From contig CAZBTP010000001.1 in NCBI GenBank assembly GCA_964494915.1, forward strand, positions 6,792 through 70,791: a stretch of 64,000 bases of DNA. The letters are read 5' to 3'. Origin of the DNA: Candidatus Woesearchaeota archaeon (GTDB lineage: Archaea; Nanobdellota; Nanobdellia; Pacearchaeales; GW2011-AR1). Made by a program: the position numbers and the translations under genes. Positions 34,361 to 59,693 of this stretch are shown here, one piece after another. The notes under the pieces were generated by a model that did not search any database, was not told the DNA's origin, and saw nothing but the letters and a program-made list of their open reading frames with translations. The stretch's first letter is position 1; the number at the start of each line of letters is the position of its first letter.

Positions 34361-34999
34361 TCAAACACGCCGAAATCGCTGCGATGCAAGGATATAACCA
34401 ATAAACGCGATATTTAACAAAACACCGACCATAGCCTCAAGAGCAGCAATAAACTTATTAATCCCTAAGGGGGTAAAGTCGCCATAACCAACTGTCGTAA
34501 AAGTAATTGCACTATAATAAAGCGAATCAGGAAAAGATATCACTGTCGGTTTACTAAGATACAAAAATTGCGTATCGCTCGCATAATACGCCCCCGCGAA
34601 TAAAAGAATAATCATCGTCACAAAAAACCCATAACTCAGAATAAACACTGCAACCCTCTTTGATTTCAAAAGATGATCAATCCATGGAATCAATCCAACT
34701 GAATATATCATGACAAAAACGATAACAATAATAATAATCGAATTGATCTGCTCTCGTAAGATCAGATTGATAATCCCAAAAATAACAATAAGCGCGAGTG
34801 CCGTATAATCCTCAAAAATACTTCCACCAATACGACGCATATCATAGATACGTAATCCAACAAAAACTAAGATCAAGAGAGTGGTAAACACAGGTGGCAC
34901 ATGCAAGTACTGTTCAGAAAACAATGACCCCAACAAAAGAGCAGCAATAACAACCGCTAATATGAACTCAGCCCGCTGCAGAGATACCCTCTTTTTCAT
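34361..34999 (-). CDS. potassium channel family protein
   Basis: K+ selectivity filter TTVGYGDFTP after multiple TM helices. Start moved to MKKRVSL because the track ORF (to 35101) runs into tRNA-Asn. Confidence 0.7.
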   Translation of the reverse strand: MKKRVSLQRAEFILAVVIAALLLGSLFSEQYLHVPPVFTTLLILVFVGLRIYDMRRIGGSIFEDYTALALIVIFGIINLILREQINSIIIIVIVFVMIYSVGLIPWIDHLLKSKRVAVFILSYGFFVTMIILLFAGAYYASDTQFLYLSKPTVISFPDSLYYSAITFTTVGYGDFTPLGINKFIAALEAMVGVLLNIAFIGYILASQRFRRV

Positions 35000-35042
35000 A
35001 TCCAATAAACGTACAGGAGCTTTATAAGGCTTGTCGAGAAAA

Positions 35043-35128
35043 CGTCCCGGAGAGGACTCGAACCTCTGACCCCATGGTGTCTGTACGACGATAACAGCCA
35101 TGTGCTCTGCCAGCTGAGCTACCGGGAC
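35043..35128 (-). tRNA. tRNA-Asn (anticodon GUU) with 13-nt intron after position 37
   Basis: Cloverleaf GUCCCGG-UA-GCUCAGCUGGCAGAGC-A-CAUGG[CUGUUA+UCGUCGUACAGAC+A]CCAUG-GGGUC-AGAGGUUCGAGUCCUCU-CCGGGAC-G. No CCA encoded. Confidence 0.75.
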
Positions 35129-44501: not shown

Positions 44502-44885
44502 ATGACTATGAAAGACTTGTTTGATGCAAAGATCGTGTGTAAGCAATGTGACGTACAGATGAAACCAATCTACGTCGAAAAGTCTGGTTTTCGTCTGCGA
44601 GCAATTCACTGTCCACACTGCAATGATAAGATTATTCATCCCGGAGATTTACACGATTTAGAGCAGTATAATGGCTTGCGGCAGAAAACGTTCGATGTGA
44701 AATTACGTATGGTAGGAAACAGCCATGCAATCAGTATCCCGAAAGAGATTGTTGATTTTATTAATGAAACACACCAGCGCATGCATAAACAGATGAGCGA
44801 TATGGTACGTTTAGGATTTGAGGATTTTGGAAAGTTGAGCATTACATTTTTTAATGATGCTCAAAAGAGGGGGCGCGAATGGTAA
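44502..44885 (+). CDS. zinc-ribbon plus AbrB/SpoVT-like (swapped-hairpin) small protein, translationally coupled to cdc48
   Basis: CKQCD...CPHCN ribbon. [22 protein letters not shown] resembles AbrB/MazE. Stop overlaps the CDC48 start (ATGG at 44879). Confidence 0.5.
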
Positions 44886-47800
44886 AGAGCACAGGTATTA
44901 AACTAAAAGTCGTTGAGTCATTGCAAGACGATGTATACAAAGGAGTTGCACGAATCGATCCGCAGATCATGCGATCGATGGGTTTGATGAGGGGCGATAT
45001 TATCACAATTCAAGGCGGGCGAGAAACGCAAGCGATTGTCGATCGTGCATACCCTGCTGATGTCGGCGAGAGTATTATTCGTATCGACGGTCTGATCAGA
45101 AAGAATGCGCGTATTGGCGTCGGTGAGCACGTTATCGTCAAGAAAGCAACGAGCAGACCAGCAACAAAGGTCATTATTGCACCTGCACAGCAAGGGATTA
45201 TGGTACAAGGCGATCCTGAAATGTTAAAGCAGGGTTTGTTAGGACGCCCAGTTGCAAAGGGAGATATCATCTCATTAGGAGGAGTGCATCGCCGGAGAGA
45301 TAGTATAGGTGATGGTTTTCCTGACTTCTTCGGCGATCTACATGATCTGTTCGGAGGGCATCTTGCATTTCCTGGCTTTCAACACCTACGATTTATCGTC
45401 GTTTCAACAATACCAAATCAGCAGTGTTTTATCAATGAAGATAGCGAGATCGTACTAAATCCAAAGGCCGTTGATATCTCTGAAGATGCAATGCCGGGTA
45501 TTACATACGAAGAGATTGGCGGTTTAAGGGACGAGATTAAAAAAATACGTGAAATGGTCGAACTTCCGTTGAAACATCCTGAGATCTTTGAACGTCTTGG
45601 CATTGACGCGCCAAAGGGAGTTTTATTACATGGTCCACCAGGAACTGGAAAGACACTCCTCGCAAAGGCTGTGGCGAATGAGTCCGATGCTAATTTCATT
45701 TTGTTAAATGGTCCTGAGGTCATGAGTAAATTTTACGGGGAATCTGAGAAAAAGATTAGAGATATCTTCGAAGAAGCAGAGAAGCATGCACCGAGCATTA
45801 TCTTTTTCGACGAGATTGATGCGATCGCGCCGAAGCGAGAGGATGTACAAGGAGAGGTTGAACGAAGGGTGGTAAGTCAGTTATTATCAATGATGGATGG
45901 TTTAAAGTCAAGAGGAAAGGTTGTTGTTATTGGAGCGACAAATAGGGTTAATTCTGTTGATCCTGCGTTACGAAGACCTGGAAGATTTGACCGAGAGATT
46001 GAGATCTCTGTCCCCGGAAAGGAGGCGCGTTTAGATATACTAAAGATTCATACGCGAAATATGCCATTAACAAAAAATGTCAATCTTGATATGCTTGCAG
46101 GAAAGACGCACGGTTTTGTTGGCGCTGATTTGTCCGCGTTGACAAAAGAGGCTGCGATGAATGTTCTACGAAAGATGCTACCTGAGCTTAAGATGGACAG
46201 TGAAGAACCAATACCAAAGGAGGTTTTGGAAAAAGCTATTGTTCGCGTCGAGGACTTTGAAGATGCATTAAAGGTTGTACGCCCGAGTGCAATGAGAGAA
46301 GTTTTTGTTGAAACACCAAATGTTTCCTGGGAAGACGTTGGTGGCCTAGAAAAAACAAAGCAAGAATTGAAGGAAGCCGTTGAATGGCCGATTACGAATC
46401 CTGACGGCTTTAAACGACTCGGTATCAGAGCACCACGGGGAATCTTGTTGTATGGACCTCCAGGAACAGGGAAGACGCTATTAGCGAAGGCAGTTGCGAA
46501 GGAATCTGAGGCAAACTTTATTCATATTAAAGGACCTTCGCTATTAAGTATGTGGGTCGGAAAGTCGCTTCCCTATGAGGAAGAGGTTATTGTAATGAAA
46601 AATGGGCTTGTTGATAGAAAACCCATTGGAAGGCTTGTTGAAAACAAAGAGAAGGCTGATGTTATAAGTTTTGATAAACATAAAAAAGTAAAGTTCTCTC
46701 CGATAAAGGATTTTATACTCCATAATTCGGATGGGTCTCTTGTTGAGATCACTACTGCAAGTGGTAGGAAGATTCGTGTAACGAAAGATCATTCATTGTT
46801 TAGTTTGTATGGTACTGAGATTATTGATCTGCCAACGACTCATCTTAAAGAGAATGAGAGCTATATTGCGATTCCGCGGAAACTTCCTCTTCCTGAGATC
46901 GAACCGGAGCCGATTAATCTCTTGCATGTTCTTGAGGAAGAAATTTCTGTTTCTTTTAATAGCTATATTGGGGAAGCGGTTAAGGTGTTAGGAAAAGAAC
47001 GATCTGCCGAAGTACTTGAGATACCTCTAAAGTATATGTATGATGTGCTTAGCAAAGAGTTGGCGATCTCCGCAAAAGGATTTCTAGCCCTCATGAAGGA
47101 AGCAGGAATAGCGTTCGACTATAAGCAGACTAGTATCCATGTACGAAATAGCACCCACTCAATGCAAGCTTCTTTGATTATTACTCCAGAATTGTGCGAA
47201 CTTCTTGGACTATGGGTTGCTGAAGGCGATTACAATAAAAAAAGCGTTCGTATTCATGCGATGAATAAGGAGATACGAATGAGAGTGAGAGAACTTTTAG
47301 ATGTCTGTCGTTTACCCTTCTCGACTAATAAAGAAACCTTTAGTATCAACTCGTTATTATTCCAGCGTATCATGAAGGAAGTTTTCAAGTTATATGATAA
47401 AGCCCATAATAAGCGAATACCTGCTTTGGTGTTTACTTTACCACGGCGATATATTCATTCTTTTTTGAGAGGTTATTACAGTGGAGATGGTTCTATTTAT
47501 TCTACGAATGGAAGAAGTTCTGCTATTGAAGCTGCGACAAAAAGTGAGAAACTAGCGAATGATTTACTTTATCTATTGTTAGGGCTTGGTATCGTTGGAA
47601 GGGTTTATGAAAAGAGCATTGATACAGAACGCTATTATCGAGTTATGTTTATGGGAGTCGACTATCTCACCGTATTTAGCGAGATAGGCTTTATTGATAC
47701 CAAGAGAAATAATAGGATTCTGTTGTACATTAAAAGTAAGAAATGGAAAAGAAGTGATAATATTCCTATTACAGGAGATTTGTACACGCTTCTTCCAAAA

Positions 47801-48619
47801 TCACGAAGATCGAATGAAAGTATTGAACGAGAAGAACTGAGAAAGATTGGGAACCAGTTGAATAATGAAAACATATTAAAATTGGTTGATGCCGATGTTT
47901 ATTTTGATAAGGTCGTTGAAATTACCAATCTCGACTATTCTCTCCCTGTATACGATCTAACAATAAATCCAACTGAGAATTTTGTTGCAGGATTTGGTGG
48001 TGTGTTCGTGCATAATAGCGAAGAAGGCGTTCGAAAGGTTTTTGAGCGCGCGCGGCAGGTCGCACCCTGTGTTGTGTTCTTTGACGAGATTGATGCACTT
48101 GCAGGAAAACGAGGGTTAGAAGTCGGGACAAAGGTAACCGAACGTGTTTTGAATCAGCTCTTAGCAGAGATTGACGGTCTTGAAGACCTAAAAGACGTAA
48201 CTATTATTGGTGCTACGAATCGGCCAGATATGTTAGATCCGGCTATCTTACGACCAGGAAGGTTCGATCGAGTGATCTTGGTTGATATACCCGATGAAAC
48301 AAGTCGTCAGAGAATTTTAGAGATCCATACCAAAAAGACACCGTTGGGAGACGACGTTGATATACGCGAGCTTGTAAAGTTAACCGATGGTTTTGTTGGT
48401 GCTGATTTAGAAGCGTTAGTACGTGAAGCTGCGCTGAATGCATTACGGAAAGATAACAGCGCGAGTATGGTGATGCTTGATGATTTCGACGAAGCGTTCA
48501 AGAGGGTTAAACCCTCAGTATCGCGCGACACTGCGCAGCGATACAAAAAGATCGAAGAGTATTATTTAAAGCGAGCAAAAGCAGGATTAGAAAGTTCCAG
48601 CCCTATGTATGCAGGATAA
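44879..48619 (+). CDS. cdc48: CDC48/VCP-like AAA+ ATPase containing a 484-aa LAGLIDADG intein in the D2 domain
   Basis: N-domain, two Walker A GPPGTGKT, two DEID Walker B, SRH. Extein about 762 aa once 46565-48016 is removed. Confidence 0.9.
46565..48016 (+). mobile_element. intein with LAGLIDADG homing-endonuclease domain inserted between WVGK and SEEGVRK of CDC48 D2
   Basis: Begins with Ser, ends VHN followed by Ser. Motifs [11 protein letters not shown] and [13 protein letters not shown]. Flanks reconstitute the CDC48 consensus LLSxWVGESE. Confidence 0.85.
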
Positions 48620-48896: not shown

Positions 48897-51782
48897 TTAG
48901 AACCGACAACTGTCTCCACGACATGAACGTCCACCACAGCCCGTATATAACGACGAGGGATTCCCACAGGAGTCAAACCAGTAAACATTCCCATTATAGC
49001 AGCTTTTGTATGCAAAATCCGAGCAACATCCTGAAAAATCGAATAAGCAATTGGAATTGCAACCTAATAGTCCACGGTCCCAACAAAAGTTTCCACAGGT
49101 TTTTCCGTTCAATTTGTTTCCTTCGCATTGTTCACCGGGTTCTATTAGGCCGTTTCCACAAATGGCCTGCACCCGGTCTATTGAAGAGGGATTTTCCAAG
49201 ACTACAAGAGCAACTGGCAGGCTTCCACTCCTCCGGAATTGGTTTATCGACTTCAGATAAAGGTTTTCCTTAATTGCGGGTTTGATTTGGGCATTTTGGA
49301 AATTGATTACAGTTTGGGGGTTAACGGTCTGGGAACCAATAACGATATTAGAGGTATCCAACAATTCAAATACCGCACTCGGCCGGTTGTCTGAATTGGA
49401 GTTTATTGAAACCAGTTTCATTTTCATGGTTTGGCCTTCAAAAATCCCTTTGCCTGTCAAGAAGATCATTGATCCCACGTCAATGGTTTTTGTTTCAAAT
49501 GTTCTGTCGCTGGGTTGTTCGATGCAGTAAATTCTTTGTCGGGTTGAACAATCGGATAATGATCTTTTGGTTCTTTCCCATTCAATCGTATTAGTCCCGT
49601 CAATTATCCCAGAAGCGCCTTTTACGGTGGCGCTATGTTGGTCAAAAGTCCAGTCCTGGCAAGTGAGAAGAGCACCCAAAGTCGGAGTCAATCGGTTGCT
49701 TGGTCTCAAAGGTTTTTTTCCAGTCCAAACAAAAGAGTTGACCAACGTTTTTGTTTCATCCAAATTAATGGGGTGTCGAATAGTTCCATCGGTAAGGTCA
49801 TTCCAATCATTTGCGATCCGTGTCCCGTCGAGTAACTGGTAGGGAAAGGGTGTTTCAGCGATTCCATTTCCTGGTTCCATAGCGGAAGTGCCCAGATAGG
49901 CTTTCCATCTTCCTCCCAAGTTGGCGTTGTCCGCGAGTATTTGGCATTGAAAGTCTGCCCCGCGTGTTCCACCGAGGTTTCCTGAAAATTGAGTGCTCGA
50001 AACAAACACTCGAAAGCGATTGCAATCCAATTCGCAGTTCGCAAGGTTTTCGTAGGGTTCGCAGACATTATTGCCACAAGATAAAGGAGAATAGGGTGGA
50101 AAATCAATTTTAACTTGGGTTTCTTCTAAGTTCGTCTTTAAATTGGTGATTCCAACATCGTTAAATGGTGCAATAACTGTTTGACCAGTTGGGATAATCG
50201 GCTTCAGCCAATCCCACTTATCATTTGTTCGCGGATTAGAATGGGGAGTCATATCGAGTAAAATAGGAGACGAGAAATCGTAATCGCTTAACTTTTTATG
50301 AGCCATCGGGCCGTTTATATCGTACTTTTCGCCACCATATATAGCGTCTTTGCCCAGGGGCTGTCGGAATTCAAGATAAAAAGTATAATCCTGCCTTGCT
50401 CCGCACGGAATTTTTAAGACTTTGGTGTTCAGACCCGCTCGTTCAAGCGGAGTTAACGCAATAATTGCATCCTGAGTCACATCCACTATGTTCCCTGAAT
50501 TAAACCAACCCAGTGTTTCTTTTTGGATGCTATTAAAATGTCCGTCGAGGCCGCCCATAATATCAAAATAATCACCATACTCGAAAACAGAACATGCATT
50601 CGGACTGTGAGAAAAAGAGACATCTCCGCATTCCAAACTGCTGGAGTGAGGCAGCCCCAAATTGTGCCCAAATTCATGAATAAATACGTTATAAAAAACA
50701 TCATCGAATCGATATTCTGCTATCAACAGAACCGAAGTTAAAGTTGAACTGCCATCTTGCGTATTAATAAAAGACGATCCGAGAGCAAATCCCAGACCAC
50801 ATGACACTCCGGTGGAAACAATGACTGCGATTCGTTGATAATCCGGATAGAAAATATCAGCATCGGCTACCTCCAGTGCCCTCTGAAGTAGTCCGTGAGA
50901 AGAACACACTTCTACGTCTCCTGAAGTTTCAATGTGGATGATATCCGAGGGTGTATCTCCTCCTTGGTACCATCCAAACACATTGCCAGTAAGCCATGTT
51001 TTACCGTAAGAAACTTCTTTGTAATAAGAATCAACCGAATCCGCATTGGTTAAACCGAATATGCGATCGTGAATTTCTTCTGGAGATACAGTGGGGGTAG
51101 GGCCATCCGAAAAAGCAACTAAAATTACGGCGATTTTTTGTTCTCCCGTCGTCGGAATTTGCGTCCTATCAACCTCAGCACCTGCAATGCCGAGTACTTG
51201 GTCCGCGTTCGCGAGGATAACCTGATTGTCAAGCGCGTACCCACTTAAAACCACTTCTGACCCTGAGTTGGTTTTAGGTTCCCCCATTGCAAAAAATAGT
51301 TCGGATCTCCCAGTTTTTTCTTTCAGAAAGTACCGCTGTTTATACTTTTTGTTTTCGAAGTCGTCCTCGTGCCAGACTTCAAATGTTCCTTGTTTTCGAA
51401 TGGACTGTTCAATATATAGTTTTATCCCTGGAGGCAACCGGTTTCGGGTTTCTCCCGGAAGTGCGAGTTCTAAAAAAGCCTTTGGGTCTTTTTTGATTAA
51501 TTGTAGCATTTTTTGTTTGCGTTGTTTGGCGAAGGTCACTCGTTTGGAGAGTGGAAGAGCATTATTCAGGAGTTGTGTATCGAACTTTTTGATTTGTTCC
51601 TTGTCGCTTACAGCGCTGGCAAAATCCGTTGCAGTGTTTTTTGGTCGAGAAGATGCAATCCCGGAATTTTCTAATATTAAATTTGGACCAAAAACCGAGC
51701 TTTGGATAACTGCTAGTATGCCCACAGCGGAGATAATAAAAACGACGAGTATCCAATTTAGCTGGTGCTTGAACGATCTCAC
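48897..51782 (-). CDS. secreted zinc metalloprotease, M6/InhA-like, with Cys-rich C-terminal region. GTG start.
   Basis: N-terminal TM/signal. EQKIAVILVAF...DSYYKEVSYGKTWLTGNVFGWY...HEFGHNLGLPH (HExxHxxGxxH). C-terminal Cys-rich modules. The start codon GTG lies inside the 31-bp repeat. Confidence 0.7.
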   Translation of the reverse strand: MRSFKHQLNWILVVFIISAVGILAVIQSSVFGPNLILENSGIASSRPKNTATDFASAVSDKEQIKKFDTQLLNNALPLSKRVTFAKQRKQKMLQLIKKDPKAFLELALPGETRNRLPPGIKLYIEQSIRKQGTFEVWHEDDFENKKYKQRYFLKEKTGRSELFFAMGEPKTNSGSEVVLSGYALDNQVILANADQVLGIAGAEVDRTQIPTTGEQKIAVILVAFSDGPTPTVSPEEIHDRIFGLTNADSVDSYYKEVSYGKTWLTGNVFGWYQGGDTPSDIIHIETSGDVEVCSSHGLLQRALEVADADIFYPDYQRIAVIVSTGVSCGLGFALGSSFINTQDGSSTLTSVLLIAEYRFDDVFYNVFIHEFGHNLGLPHSSSLECGDVSFSHSPNACSVFEYGDYFDIMGGLDGHFNSIQKETLGWFNSGNIVDVTQDAIIALTPLERAGLNTKVLKIPCGARQDYTFYLEFRQPLGKDAIYGGEKYDINGPMAHKKLSDYDFSSPILLDMTPHSNPRTNDKWDWLKPIIPTGQTVIAPFNDVGITNLKTNLEETQVKIDFPPYSPLSCGNNVCEPYENLANCELDCNRFRVFVSSTQFSGNLGGTRGADFQCQILADNANLGGRWKAYLGTSAMEPGNGIAETPFPYQLLDGTRIANDWNDLTDGTIRHPINLDETKTLVNSFVWTGKKPLRPSNRLTPTLGALLTCQDWTFDQHSATVKGASGIIDGTNTIEWERTKRSLSDCSTRQRIYCIEQPSDRTFETKTIDVGSMIFLTGKGIFEGQTMKMKLVSINSNSDNRPSAVFELLDTSNIVIGSQTVNPQTVINFQNAQIKPAIKENLYLKSINQFRRSGSLPVALVVLENPSSIDRVQAICGNGLIEPGEQCEGNKLNGKTCGNFCWDRGLLGCNSNCLFDFSGCCSDFAYKSCYNGNVYWFDSCGNPSSLYTGCGGRSCRGDSCRF

Positions 51783-53989: not shown

Positions 53990-54922
53990 TTATTGGGAAG
54001 ACGATTGGCGAGGTCGGATATTAACAACTGCACCATTATTCTCTTTTGAGAGCTCACGTTCTTGATGATAAACCACAAACGAAACACGGTTGGTTTCTCG
54101 AGGGATATAGATATTGGTAACTGTTATAATGCGCTTTGTACCAATTGAATAATTTCCGATATCAAAGGTTTTTACCCTCTCTTCATTCGCTGAAAGATCA
54201 AGGAAGGCGTTTTTTGCTTCTTTGAGTCCGTCGTTTGCAATAATAACCTCAATATTCAGGTAGCGACCTGTTTTGTTTGCTTTTACTCTCTCTATAACAA
54301 GATCACTAAGTGCAGAATCACGGTAGAGATTGTTAATTTCCTCAATAATGTACGCATCTATTGTCTGCCGGCAGTTTGTAACCGGATAGATAATACTTGT
54401 TTTATGTGCATTATGGTCAAAGCCAAGAGCATGGAGAATTTCGTGCGTTGCTACTTGAGGAGTTTTGCAGCTCTCTGGACGGTAGAGTGCTATTTTTCCA
54501 GACGTGATCACCGCATATCGTGTCGCGTTGATAATCTCTGTTGGTCCGCCCTCCCCTGCAACAAAATGATTTTCTTGTGTTGGTTGTGGAGCAATGTTTT
54601 CACACGAAATCTCAATCTGAGCCTCTAAAGACTCATTAAACATAAGGATCGTTTTTTGTTGAAGAAGTGCAAAAGCCGCTCGCCCATCTGTTCTCTTTTT
54701 TTGGTCACAGGATTCACTAAAAGAATAAGATATAATCCTATCTGGATAGCGCATATTTGGGTAGAATTGCGAGCTTTTCGTTGAGATATTCTCGGTCGTT
54801 ATCGAAGTGAATGTCTCAAACTCTTGCGGCGGGGTAGGAAGATTTACCCAAAGAAAATAAATAGAAAATATAAGCAGGCTAAAAAGCACAAGGAAAACAA
54901 GTGCATTGAATACAACCCCCAT
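53990..54922 (-). CDS. membrane-anchored metzincin-type zinc metalloprotease
   Basis: N-terminal TM. HEILHALGFDH (HExxHxxGxxH). Confidence 0.65.
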   Translation of the reverse strand: MGVVFNALVFLVLFSLLIFSIYFLWVNLPTPPQEFETFTSITTENISTKSSQFYPNMRYPDRIISYSFSESCDQKKRTDGRAAFALLQQKTILMFNESLEAQIEISCENIAPQPTQENHFVAGEGGPTEIINATRYAVITSGKIALYRPESCKTPQVATHEILHALGFDHNAHKTSIIYPVTNCRQTIDAYIIEEINNLYRDSALSDLVIERVKANKTGRYLNIEVIIANDGLKEAKNAFLDLSANEERVKTFDIGNYSIGTKRIITVTNIYIPRETNRVSFVVYHQERELSKENNGAVVNIRPRQSSSQ

Positions 54923-54982: not shown

Positions 54983-55387
54983 ATGAGATACGAGTTTTTA
55001 GAGCATACTGCAGATATAAAGTTTAGAGCATACGGAAAAACCCTCAACGAGCTATTCGAGAATGCTGTATTAGCTGTTGCCGCGTATGTGGGCAAGGGTG
55101 AGAAAATACACCCAAGAAAAGCGCGAAGGATCGAGGTACATGGCACTGATATTGAAAATTTGCTCTATTCATTTTTAGATGAACTCATTTATTTAATGGA
55201 TGCTGAGAAGTTTGTGACAGCAAAGGCAGAGGTGTTTGTTCGCGGGAATAATCTAACCGCCGAACTGTACGGTGATGCTGCTACTCAATACGAAGGTTTA
55301 GATGCAATAAAGGCAGCAACCTATGCTGACATGTATGTTAAAAAAACGAGTAAAGGCTGGGAGTTGCAAGTAGTCCTGGACGTATAG
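54983..55387 (+). CDS. archease
   Basis: MRYEFLEHTADIKFRAYGKTLNELFENA canonical archease N-terminus. Start chosen at the internal ATG because the track ORF (from 54824) overlaps the upstream gene. Confidence 0.85.
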   Translation: MRYEFLEHTADIKFRAYGKTLNELFENAVLAVAAYVGKGEKIHPRKARRIEVHGTDIENLLYSFLDELIYLMDAEKFVTAKAEVFVRGNNLTAELYGDAATQYEGLDAIKAATYADMYVKKTSKGWELQVVLDV

Positions 55388-55431
55388 TTATATGTATAAT
55401 CACCCAAAAAAAAGAAAAAGAAAAGCCAGGA

Positions 55432-55460
55432 TAAAAAAATCTCACCGCCTACTTAGGCGG
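55432..55460 (-). terminator. hairpin plus U7 terminator for the minus-strand surface-protein gene
   Basis: ccgcc-tactta-ggcgg stem-loop followed on the minus strand by UUUUUUU (aaaaaaa at 55432-55438). Confidence 0.45.
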
Positions 55461-55703
55461 CGGAGGTACGAGACAAATCTCTGTCGCGGTATTACCTGCA
55501 GCATCTGTAGCTACAATTATCGCATCACTCTTTAGAGTAATGTGTACTATAATCGCTCCAGCTTGGCCGTTCGTACTTCCTATCTTTTTTAATGACGCAG
55601 TCGCACCCGGCGCTTCAGTGATCTTTACCTTATCACCAGAGGCAAATGGCCCGAATGGACCAGAACCAGCACTATCTGTGACAAAGATCTCGACATCTAT
55701 GTC

Positions 55704-56705
55704 TTAATCGTCTTTTCCTATAAGTTCGTAGAACCCGTCTTCATTCTGGCCGCCCTTCGAACCTGGAAGCGTCGTGCTTCCCGCTGGCGGAATATTTTTT
55801 CCGTGAGGGTTGACTGTCTCTATACAACCTATCTTCGGTGGGGTTTCATCATGAGGTTCTTGTAATGGACACGTCCCTGCTTCTACTTCAAAGGCCTCAT
55901 ACAGACTGTTAAATGCATCCTTAGCAAGAATCGCTTCTTTTGGAGCGTACGTTACCGGGTCACAGGTAAGATCCTCTACTCTTCCTGCTGTCGTAGCAAA
56001 CTGGGATATAAAATCGCCATTTGTTTTATTAATTCTCCGAATCTCAGCAGCACCATTACGACCTATATACAATGTATTCCCTGCTCCAACCACCACGCCG
56101 CTAACACTACAATCTGATATATTGTTAGCGTCCTTTGGCGTTACTGTGTTAAGAAGTGTTCCATTCGGTGTGAGATGGTAAACATTGCAGTTAACATCAG
56201 GGCTATAGTATATTGTGTCATCACTTCCATCGTATGCTAATCCATCAACGAGGGGTAGTCCACTAACATTAGGACTAAACTGAAAGGTTGCCAGTGCTGT
56301 ACCATTAAGAGTCTTATTACCGACATCAATGAGATAGACACTGTCATTGAAAGCTCCCCAGAGCAGATCCCTGCCCTGATCCCAGGCTAATGCACTAATA
56401 ATAATCGAATCATTGCTCGCGTTTATGATAGACTTTGTAGCTATAAGTGTTGCACTTCCATTCCCGCCGATAGGTGGTTGGTATATACCTATCACTGTTC
56501 CAGAACAGCTATTTGAGTTGATTGTAAGGTAGTATACACCATCAAACGTACCAGCGACTGAACAACCACCATTTCCAGGTAAACTAACCGTTCCTAATAG
56601 ATCTCCTGCAACTGCTAAAACTATACTAGCGGTCGTAATCATGAGAGATAGCATTATGAACATCTTTACGCTTCTCGCATTCAGAAATCTTTTCTGATTA
56701 TCCAT
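55704..56705 (-). CDS. secreted beta-propeller-like surface protein with many NxS/T sequons (ends at an in-frame TAA; 87 further sense codons follow)
   Basis: Signal/TM IMLSLMITTASIVLAVA. Repeated YY/NGT-containing blades. Confidence 0.55.
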   Translation of the reverse strand: MDNQKRFLNARSVKMFIMLSLMITTASIVLAVAGDLLGTVSLPGNGGCSVAGTFDGVYYLTINSNSCSGTVIGIYQPPIGGNGSATLIATKSIINASNDSIIISALAWDQGRDLLWGAFNDSVYLIDVGNKTLNGTALATFQFSPNVSGLPLVDGLAYDGSDDTIYYSPDVNCNVYHLTPNGTLLNTVTPKDANNISDCSVSGVVVGAGNTLYIGRNGAAEIRRINKTNGDFISQFATTAGRVEDLTCDPVTYAPKEAILAKDAFNSLYEAFEVEAGTCPLQEPHDETPPKIGCIETVNPHGKNIPPAGSTTLPGSKGGQNEDGFYELIGKDD

Positions 56706-56861
56706 CTTTTTATCCCTCCTTTCAGCTATTGATTGTAACTATAATTACATATCAATGGATTGTAACTATATATACATTATGCCAGTCTGCTAAGATTAAG
56801 CCCAGAATTTTTAATAACCGAGAATCGCAATAGTTAAAAGGTTCGTTGAGTATCGTTCTAC

Positions 56862-59693
56862 ATGGGAATAAAGAAAGTAAGTGAGAACGTCTGGGAAATC
56901 GAAAAAGAAGGAAGGATGCTAGTTCCAGGGATTGTGTTTGCCTCAGATAGCTTAATGGCTTCAATTCAAAAAGATAAGACACTCGAACAAGTGAAAAACG
57001 TTGCACAGCTTCCAGGAATTGTTGGATATTCTCTCGCGATGCCAGATGCACATCAAGGATATGGAATGGCTGTCGGAGGTGTAGCCGCGTTTGATTCCGA
57101 GCACGGAATTATTTCTCCCGGAGCAGTAGGTTATGACGTGAACTGCTTAACGGGCGATACAGAAATCCTTACAGAATTCGGAAATTCGATAAAAATTGAA
57201 GAATTTGAAAAATACAAATCAGAAATAGAAATTGAACAAAATAACCAAAAAATTAAAAAAATAATATTCTCGCGCAATCTGCCAACCTTAAACCTTGATA
57301 CAAAAAAAATAGAAGATAAATCTATTAATTTATTTATGTCAAGGCACGCGGAAGATGTATGTGAGATAACTTTAGCATCCGGCTTAAAAATTAAAGCTAC
57401 AAGCGATCATCCTTTTTTAACAAAACAAGGAATGAAAAAATTATCTGAATTAAAAGATAACACAGAACTAGCAATAAATACTTTTGAAGGAGTTGAATCC
57501 AGCGAAGTGATAAATGAAAAGGAAGCAATCCTTGCAAAGTTAATTGGTTATATGTTTGGGGATGGTTCCTTCTACGAAACAAAAGGAGAATTACGTGCGG
57601 TAGCTTATGGGCAAAAAGAAGACCTTGAAAAAATAAAGGAAGACTTATCAAGATTAGAAATAAATTCAAGTCTCTTTTGCAGAATAAGGGAGCATAAAAT
57701 ACAGACTCGTTATGGCGAAAAAAGTTTTAATTCTACAAACTGGGAGTTACATATTTATAATCAAGCTTTTCTTAAGATTTTAAAAGAAAGAGGTCTCACG
57801 TTAGGAAATAAAACAAGGCAGAAAATCAGGGTTCCCGAATGGATAAAAAAGTCAAGTAAATTAACAAAAAGATTATTTTTAGCTGGTTTTTTCGGCGCAG
57901 AAATGTCATCTCCTAAAACACTCTCTAGAACATGCTTTTGTAGCTCAACTATTAATCAGAATAAAATAACCTTACTAAAAAAAAACTGTAGAGATTTTCT
58001 TATAGACATCTCTCTGCTTTTAGAAGAATTTGGGATTAAAAATTACAAAATATCAGAGATGGAGGATTATATCAATAAATACAAAGAAAAAACATCAAGA
58101 TTAAGGCTAGCTTTATACGGAGAGGATACAATGTTAAAACTATGGAGAACAATAGGTTTTGAGTATAATAAAAAAAGACAGGACTTGGCAAACATAGCCT
58201 CTTTGTATATCTTACTAAAAAAGCAGGAAAATCAACGGAGGATTGAACTGGCTAGAAAAATAAAACAATACAGGAAAAATGGACTTACAATAGCAGAAGT
58301 AAAGGGACTCTTCCATAAAGAGATTAACGAAAGATTTATAGAAAGGCACTATTACGAAAATGCAAAACAAAGAATCAATCTTGATTTTATTACTTTTAAT
58401 GAGTTCAGAGATATAAAACTCAAAGAAATAAGAGAAATTGGGACTCTTCTTGACAAAATAATTTCTATTAAAAAGATAGAAGGCATACATAAAGTTTATG
58501 ATTTTAACATTCAGGATAATCATAATTTTATTGCAAATGGCTTTATAGTTTCGAATTGTGGAGTACGATTGCTTGCGACGAATATAACGAAAAAAGAATT
58601 TTTACCGAAACGAGGAATAGTATTAAATGAACTCTATAAGAATGTGCCGTCCGGCATCGGAAGAGGAACAGGAATAAAACTTTCAGATGCTGAATGTAAC
58701 GCGGTCTTAGAAAAGGGATTAAAATGGGCACGAGAAAAAGGATATGCGTCTGAGGAAGATATTGAGCACACAGAAGATAAGGGCTGTATTCAAGGAGCGA
58801 ATGCAGCAAAAGTTTCGCAAAGAGCAAAAGCAAGAGGCAGGGATCAGCTCGGGAGCATTGGGGCAGGAAATCATTTCCTTGAAGTACAAGAGATCGTGGA
58901 GATTTTTGATGATCGTGTTGCAAAAACGTTTGGATTAAACGAAGTCAAACAGATCGTAGTAATGATCCATACCGGCTCACGAGGGTTAGGACACCAAACT
59001 GCATCAGATTATATTATGAAAATGGAAAAAGAGTATGGATATAAACACCTTCCAGATCGCGAGTTGGCATATGCGCCAATTACTTCTGCTTTGGGAAAAG
59101 ACTATAGAGAAGCAATGGCGAGTGCTGCTAATTTCGCATTTACAAATCGGCAGATGATCACGCATCTTATAAGAAAAAGTTTTGAGAAGTATTTTCCAAA
59201 CGCGAAACTAAGCGTTGTGTATGATATCGCACATAATATTGCGAAGCTTGAGGAGTTCGAAGTCGAGAACGAGAAAAAAATATTGTGCGTACACCGAAAA
59301 GGTGCAACTCGATCATTTGGACCAGGAAGAAAAGAAATTCCGAGCGATTATAGAGAGGTAGGCTGTCCGATTTTTATTCCAGGAAGTATGGGAACATTTT
59401 CGTATGTCCTCGTCGGAACAAAGAAAGCACGTGAGATTTCGTTTGCGTCAACAGCCCATGGTGCTGGACGAATGCTATCAAGGACGTACGCAAAACAACA
59501 TATTTCTGCTGAGCATTTAAAACAAGGGCTAGCAGAAAGAGATATTATAATTAAAGCTGGATCGCTAAAAGGCATGATTGAAGAAGCGCCAGAGGCGTAT
59601 AAGGATGTGAGCGAGGTTGTTCGTGTTTCACATGCGCTCGGTATTGGAAGCGTAGTTGCAAAGCTGAAACCATTAGCCGTAATGAAAGGGTGA
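56862..59693 (+). CDS. rtcB: RNA-splicing ligase RtcB containing a 471-aa LAGLIDADG intein
   Basis: PDAHQGYG, GYDVN-CGVRL split by the intein, GAGNHF, HTGSRGLGHQ. Extein 472 aa. Confidence 0.9.
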   Translation: MGIKKVSENVWEIEKEGRMLVPGIVFASDSLMASIQKDKTLEQVKNVAQLPGIVGYSLAMPDAHQGYGMAVGGVAAFDSEHGIISPGAVGYDVNCLTGDTEILTEFGNSIKIEEFEKYKSEIEIEQNNQKIKKIIFSRNLPTLNLDTKKIEDKSINLFMSRHAEDVCEITLASGLKIKATSDHPFLTKQGMKKLSELKDNTELAINTFEGVESSEVINEKEAILAKLIGYMFGDGSFYETKGELRAVAYGQKEDLEKIKEDLSRLEINSSLFCRIREHKIQTRYGEKSFNSTNWELHIYNQAFLKILKERGLTLGNKTRQKIRVPEWIKKSSKLTKRLFLAGFFGAEMSSPKTLSRTCFCSSTINQNKITLLKKNCRDFLIDISLLLEEFGIKNYKISEMEDYINKYKEKTSRLRLALYGEDTMLKLWRTIGFEYNKKRQDLANIASLYILLKKQENQRRIELARKIKQYRKNGLTIAEVKGLFHKEINERFIERHYYENAKQRINLDFITFNEFRDIKLKEIREIGTLLDKIISIKKIEGIHKVYDFNIQDNHNFIANGFIVSNCGVRLLATNITKKEFLPKRGIVLNELYKNVPSGIGRGTGIKLSDAECNAVLEKGLKWAREKGYASEEDIEHTEDKGCIQGANAAKVSQRAKARGRDQLGSIGAGNHFLEVQEIVEIFDDRVAKTFGLNEVKQIVVMIHTGSRGLGHQTASDYIMKMEKEYGYKHLPDRELAYAPITSALGKDYREAMASAANFAFTNRQMITHLIRKSFEKYFPNAKLSVVYDIAHNIAKLEEFEVENEKKILCVHRKGATRSFGPGRKEIPSDYREVGCPIFIPGSMGTFSYVLVGTKKAREISFASTAHGAGRMLSRTYAKQHISAEHLKQGLAERDIIIKAGSLKGMIEEAPEAYKDVSEVVRVSHALGIGSVVAKLKPLAVMKG
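57144..58556 (+). mobile_element. intein with LAGLIDADG homing endonuclease in RtcB at the GYDVN/CGVRL site
   Basis: Starts CLTGDTEIL (block A), LIGYMFGDGSF and FLAGFFGAEMS LAGLIDADG motifs, ends IVSN followed by Cys. Terminal Asn is preceded by Ser rather than His. Confidence 0.85.

Follow-up and report, generated by a model that had tools for sequence, protein, structure and literature searches.

The window analysed here, a stretch of 64 kb in length from a DPANN-type archaeon, carries an rtcB gene that is interrupted by an intein. It also carries the gene for archease and a further intein-bearing gene. The genes and their parts are as follows:

44879..48619: CDC48-type AAA ATPase, the second intein-bearing gene of the window, with its intein at 46565..48016
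54983..55387, forward strand: archease gene, 134 aa, encoding the RtcB activator (PF01951, 6e-40)
55388..56861, no strand assigned: 1.5-kb segment between archease and rtcB
55704..56705, opposite strand to rtcB: ORF of 333 aa lying between archease and rtcB
56862..59693, forward strand: rtcB precursor ORF, 943 aa, ATG to TGA, consisting of N-extein, intein and C-extein
56862..57143, forward strand: RtcB N-extein, 94 aa, ending GAVGYDVN and including metal ligand Asp92 (equivalent to Pho Asp95)
57144..58556, forward strand: RtcB intein, 471 aa, precursor aa 95-565, with a HINT domain, a nested LAGLIDADG endonuclease and a helical region
58557..59693, forward strand: RtcB C-extein, 378 aa plus stop, with Cys+1 at 58557-58559

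The rtcB precursor and its spliced product

The 943-aa ORF matches the Pfam family RtcB (PF01139, E=4e-154) in two stretches, and the same ORF also matches Intein_splicing (PF14890, 1e-19) and LAGLIDADG_3 (PF14528, 5e-6). The intein starts with CLTGDTEIL and ends with FIVSN, after which the C-extein continues as CGVRLL. Removal of the intein in silico yields a 472-aa RtcB, of which residues 3-472 align end to end with residues 5-481 of Pyrococcus horikoshii RtcB (Pho RtcB, 1uc2; E=3.6e-153), the alignment running ungapped through GYD(V/I)N-CGVRL. The joined peptide across the splice junction reads ...GAVGYDVNCGVR.... The ORF, the Pfam matches and the 1uc2 alignment thus bear out the initial annotation, which had described RtcB as split at its catalytic GYDxN|CGVRL site by a homing-endonuclease intein of this length and with these termini.

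We compared the spliced protein with Pho RtcB at Asp95, Cys98, His203, His234 and His329, which hold the binuclear metal center, and at His404, which is guanylylated. The roles of these residues have been described, including that of Cys98 as an oxidation-sensitive Mn-bridging ligand (PMC9745838). All metal ligands are retained in the window protein (D92, C95, H200, H232 and H320 in spliced numbering), as is the guanylylated nucleophile, H395. Cys+1 is the equivalent of Pho Cys98, and so corresponds to both the Mn-bridging ligand and the splice nucleophile. Full-length homology and the active-site residues identify the predicted spliced product as an RtcB 3'-phosphate/5'-OH RNA ligase.

Splicing motifs of the intein

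The conserved splicing blocks can be located throughout the intein:

57144..57170, forward strand: block A, CLTGDTEIL, with the N-terminal nucleophile Cys1 (57144-57146)
57381..57422, forward strand: block B, GLKIKATSDHPFLT, with Thr86 (B:7) and His89 (B:10), reading T86-S-D-H89
58491..58541, forward strand: block F, KVYDFNIQDNHNFIANG, with Asp453 (F:4) and His460 (F:13)
58542..58556, forward strand: block G, FIVSN, with Ser470 (TCG, 58551-58553) and Asn471 (58554-58556)

Conservation of individual residues was counted over 64 members of the family to which this intein belongs. Cys1, His89 and Asn471 (G:7) are each present in 64/64 members, and Asp453 and His460 each in 63/64, while position B:7 is Thr in 49/64 and Ser in 15/64. 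In all 67 loci that the initial scan picked up, Cys+1 is present. In total, the window intein retains 90 of 92 family-conserved positions, and its block B aligns with that of the DnaB and DnaE intein structures. With Cys1, Thr86/His89, Asp453, His460, Asn471 and Cys+1 all in place, the intein is, as judged by its residues, a canonical class 1 intein. Class 3 inteins are defined by the lack of a nucleophile at position 1 together with a Trp(B)-Cys(F:4)-Thr(G:5) triplet. This class is ruled out, as the window intein has Cys1, with Asp453 at F:4 and Val469 at G:5.

Loss of block B or block G residues had been raised in the initial annotation as a sign that rtcB might be an inactivated pseudogene. 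Block B contains the TxxH residues and block G ends in Ser-Asn; because these residues are not missing, the gene is not a pseudogene on this account.

A known insertion site and a widespread intein family

The initial annotation left room for the junction to differ from the known RtcB intein site. The junction is not new. The window intein is inserted as GYDVN|C...N|CGVRL and that of a Thermococcales RtcB precursor (P0069) as GYDIN|C...N|CGVRLIRTNLTE, which is the same bond, Asn97|Cys98 in Pho numbering. Pho RtcB itself arises by protein splicing, and its splice junction is Cys98 (PMC4150793). The exteins of P0069 match P. horikoshii PH1602 (Pho RtcB, formerly Hyp-2; 1uc2) with E=2e-277, and its intein is homologous to that of the window (E=9e-50). 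Both inteins have Cys1 and Cys+1, and the Thermococcales intein likewise carries a nested LAGLIDADG endonuclease with a FLAGFF motif and an NxRF(V/I)ER helical motif. The two are homologous over the endonuclease and the C-terminal part at 34% identity. However, the Thermococcales intein is 480 aa long rather than 471 aa, ends VVVHN (His at G:6) rather than FIVSN, and resides in hyperthermophilic Euryarchaeota, unlike the DPANN-type host of the window.

Database searches with the window intein gave 29 RtcB-hosted matches, down to E=5e-29, and 79 genome loci with related RtcB inteins were found across archaea and bacteria. Members of this family (for example L001 from Woesearchaeota and P0001 from Nanoarchaeota) occupy the same site, are ∼460-520 aa long and end VSN|CG(V/I)R, and all of their splicing-block and LAGLIDADG residues match those of the window copy. 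At best they are 72-75% identical to the window intein, which differs from most of them at N-extein residue -2 (Val in the window, GYDVN, and Ile in most members). There is no qualitative difference between the window intein and this family. It is a new sequence variant and a further member of a known RtcB intein allele, real but ordinary, and it does not overturn current understanding.

The Ser-Asn ending

The presence of Ser rather than His before the terminal Asn had been singled out as unusual in the initial annotation. The Ser is confirmed, but it is not peculiar to this copy: the Ser-Asn ending is near-invariant in the family, being found at 73 of 74 species-level related loci. These span DPANN, Asgard, Methanosarcinales, Omnitrophota, Planctomycetia, Poribacteria and Clostridia. 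Among database representatives at the RtcB site, 61 end Ser-Asn versus 7 that end His-Asn. The RtcB active-site intein allele is therefore dominated by a Ser-Asn lineage of DPANN, Asgard and methanogen-related archaea and several bacterial phyla, and the textbook His-Asn version of Thermococcales is the minority. The penultimate Ser is encoded by TCA (29), TCT (21), TCC (12) and TCG (11), all of them TCN codons. The use of all four indicates purifying selection on Ser, with the third base drifting freely. The Ser-Asn ending is ancestral in this RtcB intein family and maintained by selection, and does not reflect decay. Surveys list RtcB among intein hosts (PMC4760082), and our literature search turned up no specific earlier account of RtcB inteins that end in Ser-Asn.

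A penultimate His (G:6) is the majority state among inteins and assists Asn cyclization, yet it is typical rather than obligatory, with ∼5% of functional inteins lacking it (PMC4031507). Ser470 in its place is thus not disqualifying. A well-studied counterpart is the split intein Npu DnaE (PDB 2keq/4kl5), which is also a class 1 intein with Cys1 and Cys+1. It ends ...NGFIASN, with Ser at G:6. Its GFIASN end aligns to block G of the window intein, and its blocks F and G align to window intein residues 431-471. Npu DnaE splices very fast even though it lacks His at G:6. Unlike the window intein, it is naturally split, has no endonuclease and is hosted by cyanobacterial DNA polymerase III alpha, and beyond the splicing blocks the two have no close relationship.

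Given the usual role of a penultimate His, the Ser at G:6 could in principle block Asn cyclization and splicing, leaving a dead intein and an inactivated rtcB. We regard this as very improbable. Fast splicing by Ser-Asn inteins such as Npu DnaE speaks against it, as do the conservation of Ser with synonymous TCN variation and the integrity of all the other splicing residues. Moreover, nothing interrupts the 2.8-kb ORF, and the exteins keep all of their catalytic residues. No second rtcB was seen within the 64-kb window, which encodes an intron-containing tRNA-Asn, and a ligase is therefore needed. The locus is far better read as a functional rtcB with a class 1 LAGLIDADG intein at the standard RtcB site, immediately before the Mn-bridging active-site Cys, a reading that its sequence makes highly likely. 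In annotation, the gene should be entered as a functional rtcB whose intein spans 57144-58556 and whose mature ligase has 472 aa, and not as a pseudogene or a fusion.

Proposed splicing and its possible regulation

The precursor of 943 aa would be translated as an inactive ligase, since the metal ligands Asp92 and Cys lie 471 residues apart in it. From the residues present, we infer the following course for splicing. An N-S acyl shift at Cys1, helped by Thr86 and His89, would be followed by attack of Cys+1 to form a branched thioester. Cyclization of Asn471 would then be aided by His460 and Asp453, with Ser470 replacing the usual His, and an S-N shift would complete the formation of the 472-aa RtcB and release the free 471-aa intein. 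The latter is expected to act as a LAGLIDADG homing endonuclease (Asp140/Glu253), copying itself into rtcB alleles that lack an intein by cutting them where the conserved GYDIN|CGVRL is encoded.

It is conceivable that splicing is conditional, being gated for instance by a Cys1-Cys+1 disulfide, by metal binding or by oxidative stress, such that RtcB would be activated post-translationally. The intein is flanked by Cys1 and Cys+1, the latter being the Mn-bridging Cys of RtcB that is sensitive to oxidation (PMC9745838), and the family is very widely retained over two domains. Conditional protein splicing has also been discussed as a property of inteins (PMC4031507). Nonetheless, we consider such a regulatory role improbable: placement in conserved catalytic motifs is the general insertion rule for selfish inteins, because the homing site is conserved there and imprecise loss is lethal, and the closest relative manages without an intein.

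An equally speculative proposal concerns the cyclization step itself. Position B:11 is Pro in the window intein family, as opposed to the Arg used by Ssp DnaE. Ser at G:6 (73/74) together with Pro at B:11 might represent a distinct, stable solution to Asn cyclization that uses neither a penultimate His nor Arg at B:11, perhaps tuned to the Mn-bridging, oxidation-sensitive +1 Cys. We think this a long shot. If it were true, splicing, and hence tRNA-ligase activation, could follow redox state or metal availability, and an enzyme essential to RNA processing would be governed by a conditional-splicing switch. When the seven His-Asn RtcB inteins were compared with the Ser-Asn ones, no co-variation of Ser or His at G:6 with blocks B and F was evident by eye.

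The endonuclease and helical region

Three motifs mark the region between blocks B and F:

57528..57572, forward strand: LAGLIDADG motif 1, ILAKLIGYMFGDGSF, with putative catalytic Asp140 (LIGYMFGD140G)
57867..57911, forward strand: LAGLIDADG motif 2, KRLFLAGFFGAEMSS, with putative catalytic Glu253 (LAGFFGAE253)
58326..58376, forward strand: helical-region motif N-x-RFIER-x2-YE-x4-R-I, conserved in the family

An AlphaFold2 model was built from a 6-sequence alignment. The endonuclease core (aa 123-250 and 280-330) has pLDDT values of 70-92, whereas those for the HINT domain (aa 25-121 and 458-471) are below 50. In Foldseek searches the core matches PI-SceI, I-SceI, I-WcaI and bI3 maturase with a probability of 1.00, although with modest TM-scores, and in the model the window intein contains the LAGLIDADG alpha-beta-beta-alpha-beta-beta-alpha core fold. 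The best matches are PI-SceI and TliVMA (PDB 1vde and 7qss; E=4.5e-8 and 8.4e-8), in which a two-motif LAGLIDADG endonuclease is likewise nested in a HINT domain. These inteins are hosted by V-ATPase rather than by RtcB, and end in His-Asn. They are 12-15% identical to the window intein, with TM-scores of 0.26-0.33 that are low partly because the HINT domain is poorly modelled. The region that separates the endonuclease core from block F (∼aa 343-432) is helical in the model. WhiA, which combines LAGLIDADG with HTH, is among the Foldseek matches, and the helical region probably serves as an accessory DNA-binding module.

Residues G139, D140 and G141 are kept in 63-64 of 64 family members and Glu253 in 62/64. 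This conservation of both LAGLIDADG acidic residues and of the motifs around them, in 62-64 of 64 members, points to continued selection on nuclease function throughout the family. In the window copy, two prolines that the family conserves are replaced, by T219 and S268, both in the endonuclease region, and these substitutions could alter nuclease activity.

Probable mobility of the intein

The closest RtcB to that of the window (P0178) is 89% identical, 472 aa long and free of an intein, and it is encoded on a syntenic contig (L080). Relative to L080, the intein is a precise in-frame insertion of 1413 bp. The empty site reconstituted from the window matches L080 at 50/60 nt, the window N-extein is 84% nt-identical to L080 944-1228, and the L080 empty site, TCCCCAGGAGCAGTAGGATATGATATCAAC|TGCGGCGTACGATTGCTTGCAGCGAATATA, is a candidate cleavage target. 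In several relatives, the inteins are closer to the window intein than the corresponding exteins are to the window exteins. Both observations, the intein-free nearest allele and inteins more similar than exteins, fit mobility.

These two lines of evidence support, in part, the active intein traffic that the initial annotation had proposed for this lineage. The G+C content of the intein is 0.30, versus 0.42-0.44 for the exteins. We rejected this as a sign of recent transfer, since 56 family members share the deficit (mean 0.09, SD 0.035). The second intein-bearing gene, correctly recognized in the initial annotation, is the CDC48-type AAA ATPase, and there is no third intein in the 64-kb window. 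A common origin of the RtcB and CDC48 inteins was also rejected, as blastp gave only short, block-level matches, the best being 35% over 69 aa.

The intein might still splice but have lost its endonuclease activity, persisting as a vertical passenger that is kept only because precise deletion is rare. Many inteins are in such a state, two conserved prolines have been replaced in this copy, and the nearest known intein is 75% identical, so that no very recent transfer is documented. We judge this possible although unlikely. Set against it are the family-wide retention of the catalytic acidic residues, the variable presence of the intein among close relatives, and the excess of intein over extein similarity in several of them, which indicates ongoing mobility in the clade. 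The window and L080 form a matched pair of filled and empty alleles (∼84% nt identity in the flanks) that provides a ready homing-site substrate. The pair also offers a natural system in which to study how splicing proceeds without a penultimate His.

Archease and rtcB

Archease and rtcB are the customary tRNA-splicing gene pair. Their joint operon has been described (PMC3973293). The Pfam match and the ORFs agree with the initial annotation that in the window archease is near but not adjacent to rtcB, with an opposite-strand gene between them: the two are co-oriented, and the distance from the end of archease to the start of rtcB is 1474 bp. In L080 they are only 37 bp apart, with an archease gene directly upstream of rtcB whose product is 89.6% identical to that of the window. 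The 1.5-kb segment, which carries the 333-aa ORF, is absent from the syntenic L080. The window thus has two insertions relative to L080, the 1413-bp intein and this segment with its opposite-strand gene. A Pfam search of the 333-aa ORF gave no match, and no homologues of this inserted gene were found in the 79 related loci. In 33 of these 79 loci, archease is found upstream of rtcB and co-oriented with it. The inserted gene has pushed archease and rtcB 1.5 kb apart in this genome; the operon structure is broken, but the functional pairing is probably retained.

An intein at the active site of RtcB

The rtcB gene of this archaeon encodes an intein-containing precursor.

56862..59693, forward strand: rtcB precursor ORF, 943 codons, ATG to TGA
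57144..58556, forward strand: intein, exactly 471 aa, precursor Cys95 to Asn565

Pfam recognizes the RtcB domain (PF01139, E=4e-154) in two stretches, between which lie matches to Intein_splicing (PF14890, 1e-19) and LAGLIDADG_3 (PF14528, 5e-6). The intein starts with CLTGDTEIL and finishes with NGFIVSN, followed by CGVRLL. Its removal yields a 472-aa RtcB that aligns with Pyrococcus horikoshii RtcB (PH1602; 1uc2, E=3.6e-153) with no gap over the junction, and the exteins keep all six catalytic residues of RtcB. Thus, the ORF, the Pfam matches and the 1uc2 alignment bear out the initial annotation of an RtcB split at GYDVN/CGVRL by a 471-aa Ser-Asn intein, every factual element of which is confirmed. 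From its sequence, rtcB is predicted, very probably, to be functional after splicing.

In the 1uc2 alignment, Asn94/Cys95 of the window protein superposes on P. horikoshii Asn97/Cys98. In the active site, both Mn ions are bridged by Cys98, and Asp95 binds the second of them (PMC9745838). Cys98 is also the published splice junction of P. horikoshii RtcB (PMC4150793). P0069, a Thermococcales-type precursor of 960 aa (exteins against PH1602, E=2e-277), carries between GYDIN and CGVRLIRTNLTE an intein homologous to that of the window (E=9e-50, 34% identity). Because the site is that of Cys98 and the P0069 intein is homologous, the window intein is an allele of the classical RtcB intein. It is an ordinary object, a new sequence member of this known active-site allele, and belongs to the allele's numerically dominant Ser-Asn lineage, here in a DPANN-type host.

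Among representative proteins, relatives of the intein also occupy other RtcB sites. Three (P0081, P0085 and P0140) read VSN/CIGGVAA, within the GxPIGGVAA motif, and one (P0071) reads VSN/CGYDINCGVRLL, an insertion five residues upstream of the usual site. These cases suggest that the Ser-Asn lineage made ectopic moves inside the same host protein.

Splicing residues and the Ser-Asn ending

Splicing-block positions follow standard intein nomenclature (PMC4031507).

A:1, Cys1
B:7 and B:10, Thr86 and His89 (TSDH)
F:4, Asp453
F:13, His460
G:7, Asn471, with Cys+1 next

The block B and block G residues singled out earlier for checking are present: TxxH occurs as T86-S-D-H89, and Asn471 is followed by Cys+1. 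The sole departure from consensus at any splicing position is Ser470 at G:6, the penultimate residue. In the family alignment, the splicing residues are kept in 63–64 of 64 complete members, with Thr or Ser at B:7, and the window copy conforms to the family at 90 of the 92 positions with at least 85% conservation. The class 3 signature is absent, and the intein is class 1.

The initial annotation had remarked on Ser in place of the usual His. Ser470 is confirmed, but it is not peculiar to the window copy. With the window intein as query, 29 RtcB-hosted relatives were found in the protein database, and 16 of the 17 whose C-junction lies on the contig end in VSN/C. An intein-profile scan, taking one genome per species, gave 79 loci. 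Their archaeal hosts are Woese-, Pace-, Nano- and Micrarchaeota, Altiarchaeota, Promethearchaeota, Methanosarcinales and Thermoplasmatales; bacterial hosts are Omnitrophota, Planctomycetia, Poribacteria (including a complete 6.3-Mb chromosome), Clostridia, Aerophobetes and CPR. The junction is GYD(I/V/L)N/C...N/CG at every readable locus, and 73 of 74 readable C-termini are Ser-Asn, the exception (L030) being His-Asn. The 73 Ser codons comprise TCA (29), TCT (21), TCC (12) and TCG (11); such free third-base drift with Ser retained is a signature of purifying selection on the G:6 Ser. HMMER, run exhaustively against 1.8 billion representatives, placed ∼61 Ser-Asn and 7 His-Asn inteins at this position in RtcB. 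Where related inteins interrupt RpoA', RpoB, uS12 and other hosts, the terminal Asn is preceded by Gly, Lys, Ser or His.

His at G:6 is missing in ∼5% of functional inteins, and in some of those a His there is detrimental (PMC4031507). Npu DnaE, a very efficient intein, ends in GFIASN, which aligns to block G of the window intein. Judged by its spread, its codons and this precedent, Ser-Asn is a hallmark of the family and not a lesion. As to a substitute for the His, the Arg at B:11 that aids Ssp DnaE is replaced by Pro in the family. The invariance of Ser at G:6 across domains at this RtcB site is the one mildly new generalization.

Endonuclease region

Both LAGLIDADG motifs of the intein, LIGYMFGD140GS and FLAGFFGAE253MS, are conserved in 62–64 of 64 family members. 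An AlphaFold2 model (mean pLDDT 65.5) is confident in the endonuclease core (70–92) and poor in the HINT domain. The best Foldseek matches are PI-SceI, the TliVMA intein, I-SceI, I-WcaI, bI3 maturase and WhiA. A conserved helical stretch at about aa 343–432 (NxRFIER..YE....RI), between the nuclease core and block F, is probably an additional DNA-binding module.

The archease–rtcB interval and the empty allele

55704..56705, reverse strand: 333-aa ORF
54983..55387: archease (PF01951, 6e-40), 1474 bp upstream of rtcB

As described initially, archease lies ∼1.5 kb upstream of rtcB with an opposite-strand gene between. The best 120 matches to the spliced RtcB, from Pacearchaeota, Nanoarchaeota and DPANN-like sources, are all intein-free and nearly all ∼470 aa. 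The top match, P0178, is exactly 472 aa and 89% identical. P0178 is encoded on L080 (GCA_964413975.1), a contig that shares with the window the gene order upstream gene, archease, rtcB, NagB-like, PIG-L, GT4; blastn aligns this syntenic contig and the window in four blocks of 79–85% identity. Exactly two segments are window-specific: 55387–56861, with the 333-aa gene, and the intein. The reconstituted window site matches the empty site at 50 of 60 nucleotides, and in L080 only 37 bp separate archease from rtcB.

The 333-aa protein has an N-terminal hydrophobic anchor, no Pfam match and no homologue found in any of the 79 loci. Given these results and its absence from L080, the segment 55388..56861 has the look of a lineage-specific insertion by which the archease–rtcB operon was broken. 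This operon is already known (PMC3973293). Of the 79 loci, 33 have archease upstream in the same orientation, adjacent or with 1–3 unrelated genes between, which is consistent with the known operon, loosened in this clade. Further upstream are two secreted zinc-metalloprotease-like genes, 53990..54922 and 48897..51782 (both reverse strand), one with matrixin/astacin HExxH and CARDB, the other M11/reprolysin-like; the 310-aa gene is conserved in position in L080 and the related locus L002.

Mobility of the window inteins

44879..48619, forward strand: CDC48/VCP-type AAA ATPase, 1246 aa
46565..48016, forward strand: its 484-aa LAGLIDADG intein, D2 domain, after WVGK

From the presence of two inteins in the window the initial annotation had suggested active intein traffic. 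Intein presence differs between the 89% identical alleles of the window and P0178, compatible with gain in the window lineage or loss in that of P0178. Several Woese- and Pacearchaeota inteins are 60–63% identical to the window intein, with C-exteins only 53–58% identical; in other pairs the exteins are the more similar, as expected. The nearest intein, P0001 (75%), is flanked by extein fragments only 57–70% identical to the window, compared with 92–95% for P0178 over the same segments. This allele variation and the excess of intein over extein identity fit mobility. However, the two window inteins share only weak similarity and are distantly related. That of CDC48 begins with Ser1, ends GGVFVHN/SEEG (His-Asn, Ser+1), and has a G+C content of 0.37 against 0.44–0.46 in its exteins. 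No third intein is present in the window. The G+C deficit of the RtcB intein (0.12) is inside the family norm (0.09 ± 0.035) and thus says nothing on the timing of its arrival.

The contig L010 (MGJU01000023.1) carries the label of a CPR bacterium, Candidatus Yanofskybacteria. Yet its rtcB intein and C-extein share 57% and 69% identity, respectively, with those of the window, and the gene downstream is again NagB-like (49%). Most probably this is DPANN archaeal sequence that was mis-binned.

An intron-containing tRNA

35043..35128, reverse strand: 86-nt tRNA

ARAGORN calls this gene, which overlaps a mechanical ORF (34361..35101), “tRNA-Stop (tta)”. In the Rfam alignment it is an ordinary tRNA except for a 14-nt insertion that follows the anticodon loop. 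Visual inspection reads it as tRNA-Asn(GUU) whose intron occupies the canonical 37/38 position, and the ARAGORN label is wrong. Such a tRNA would be processed by the splicing endonuclease and RtcB, so that its presence implies a need for the splicing ligase.
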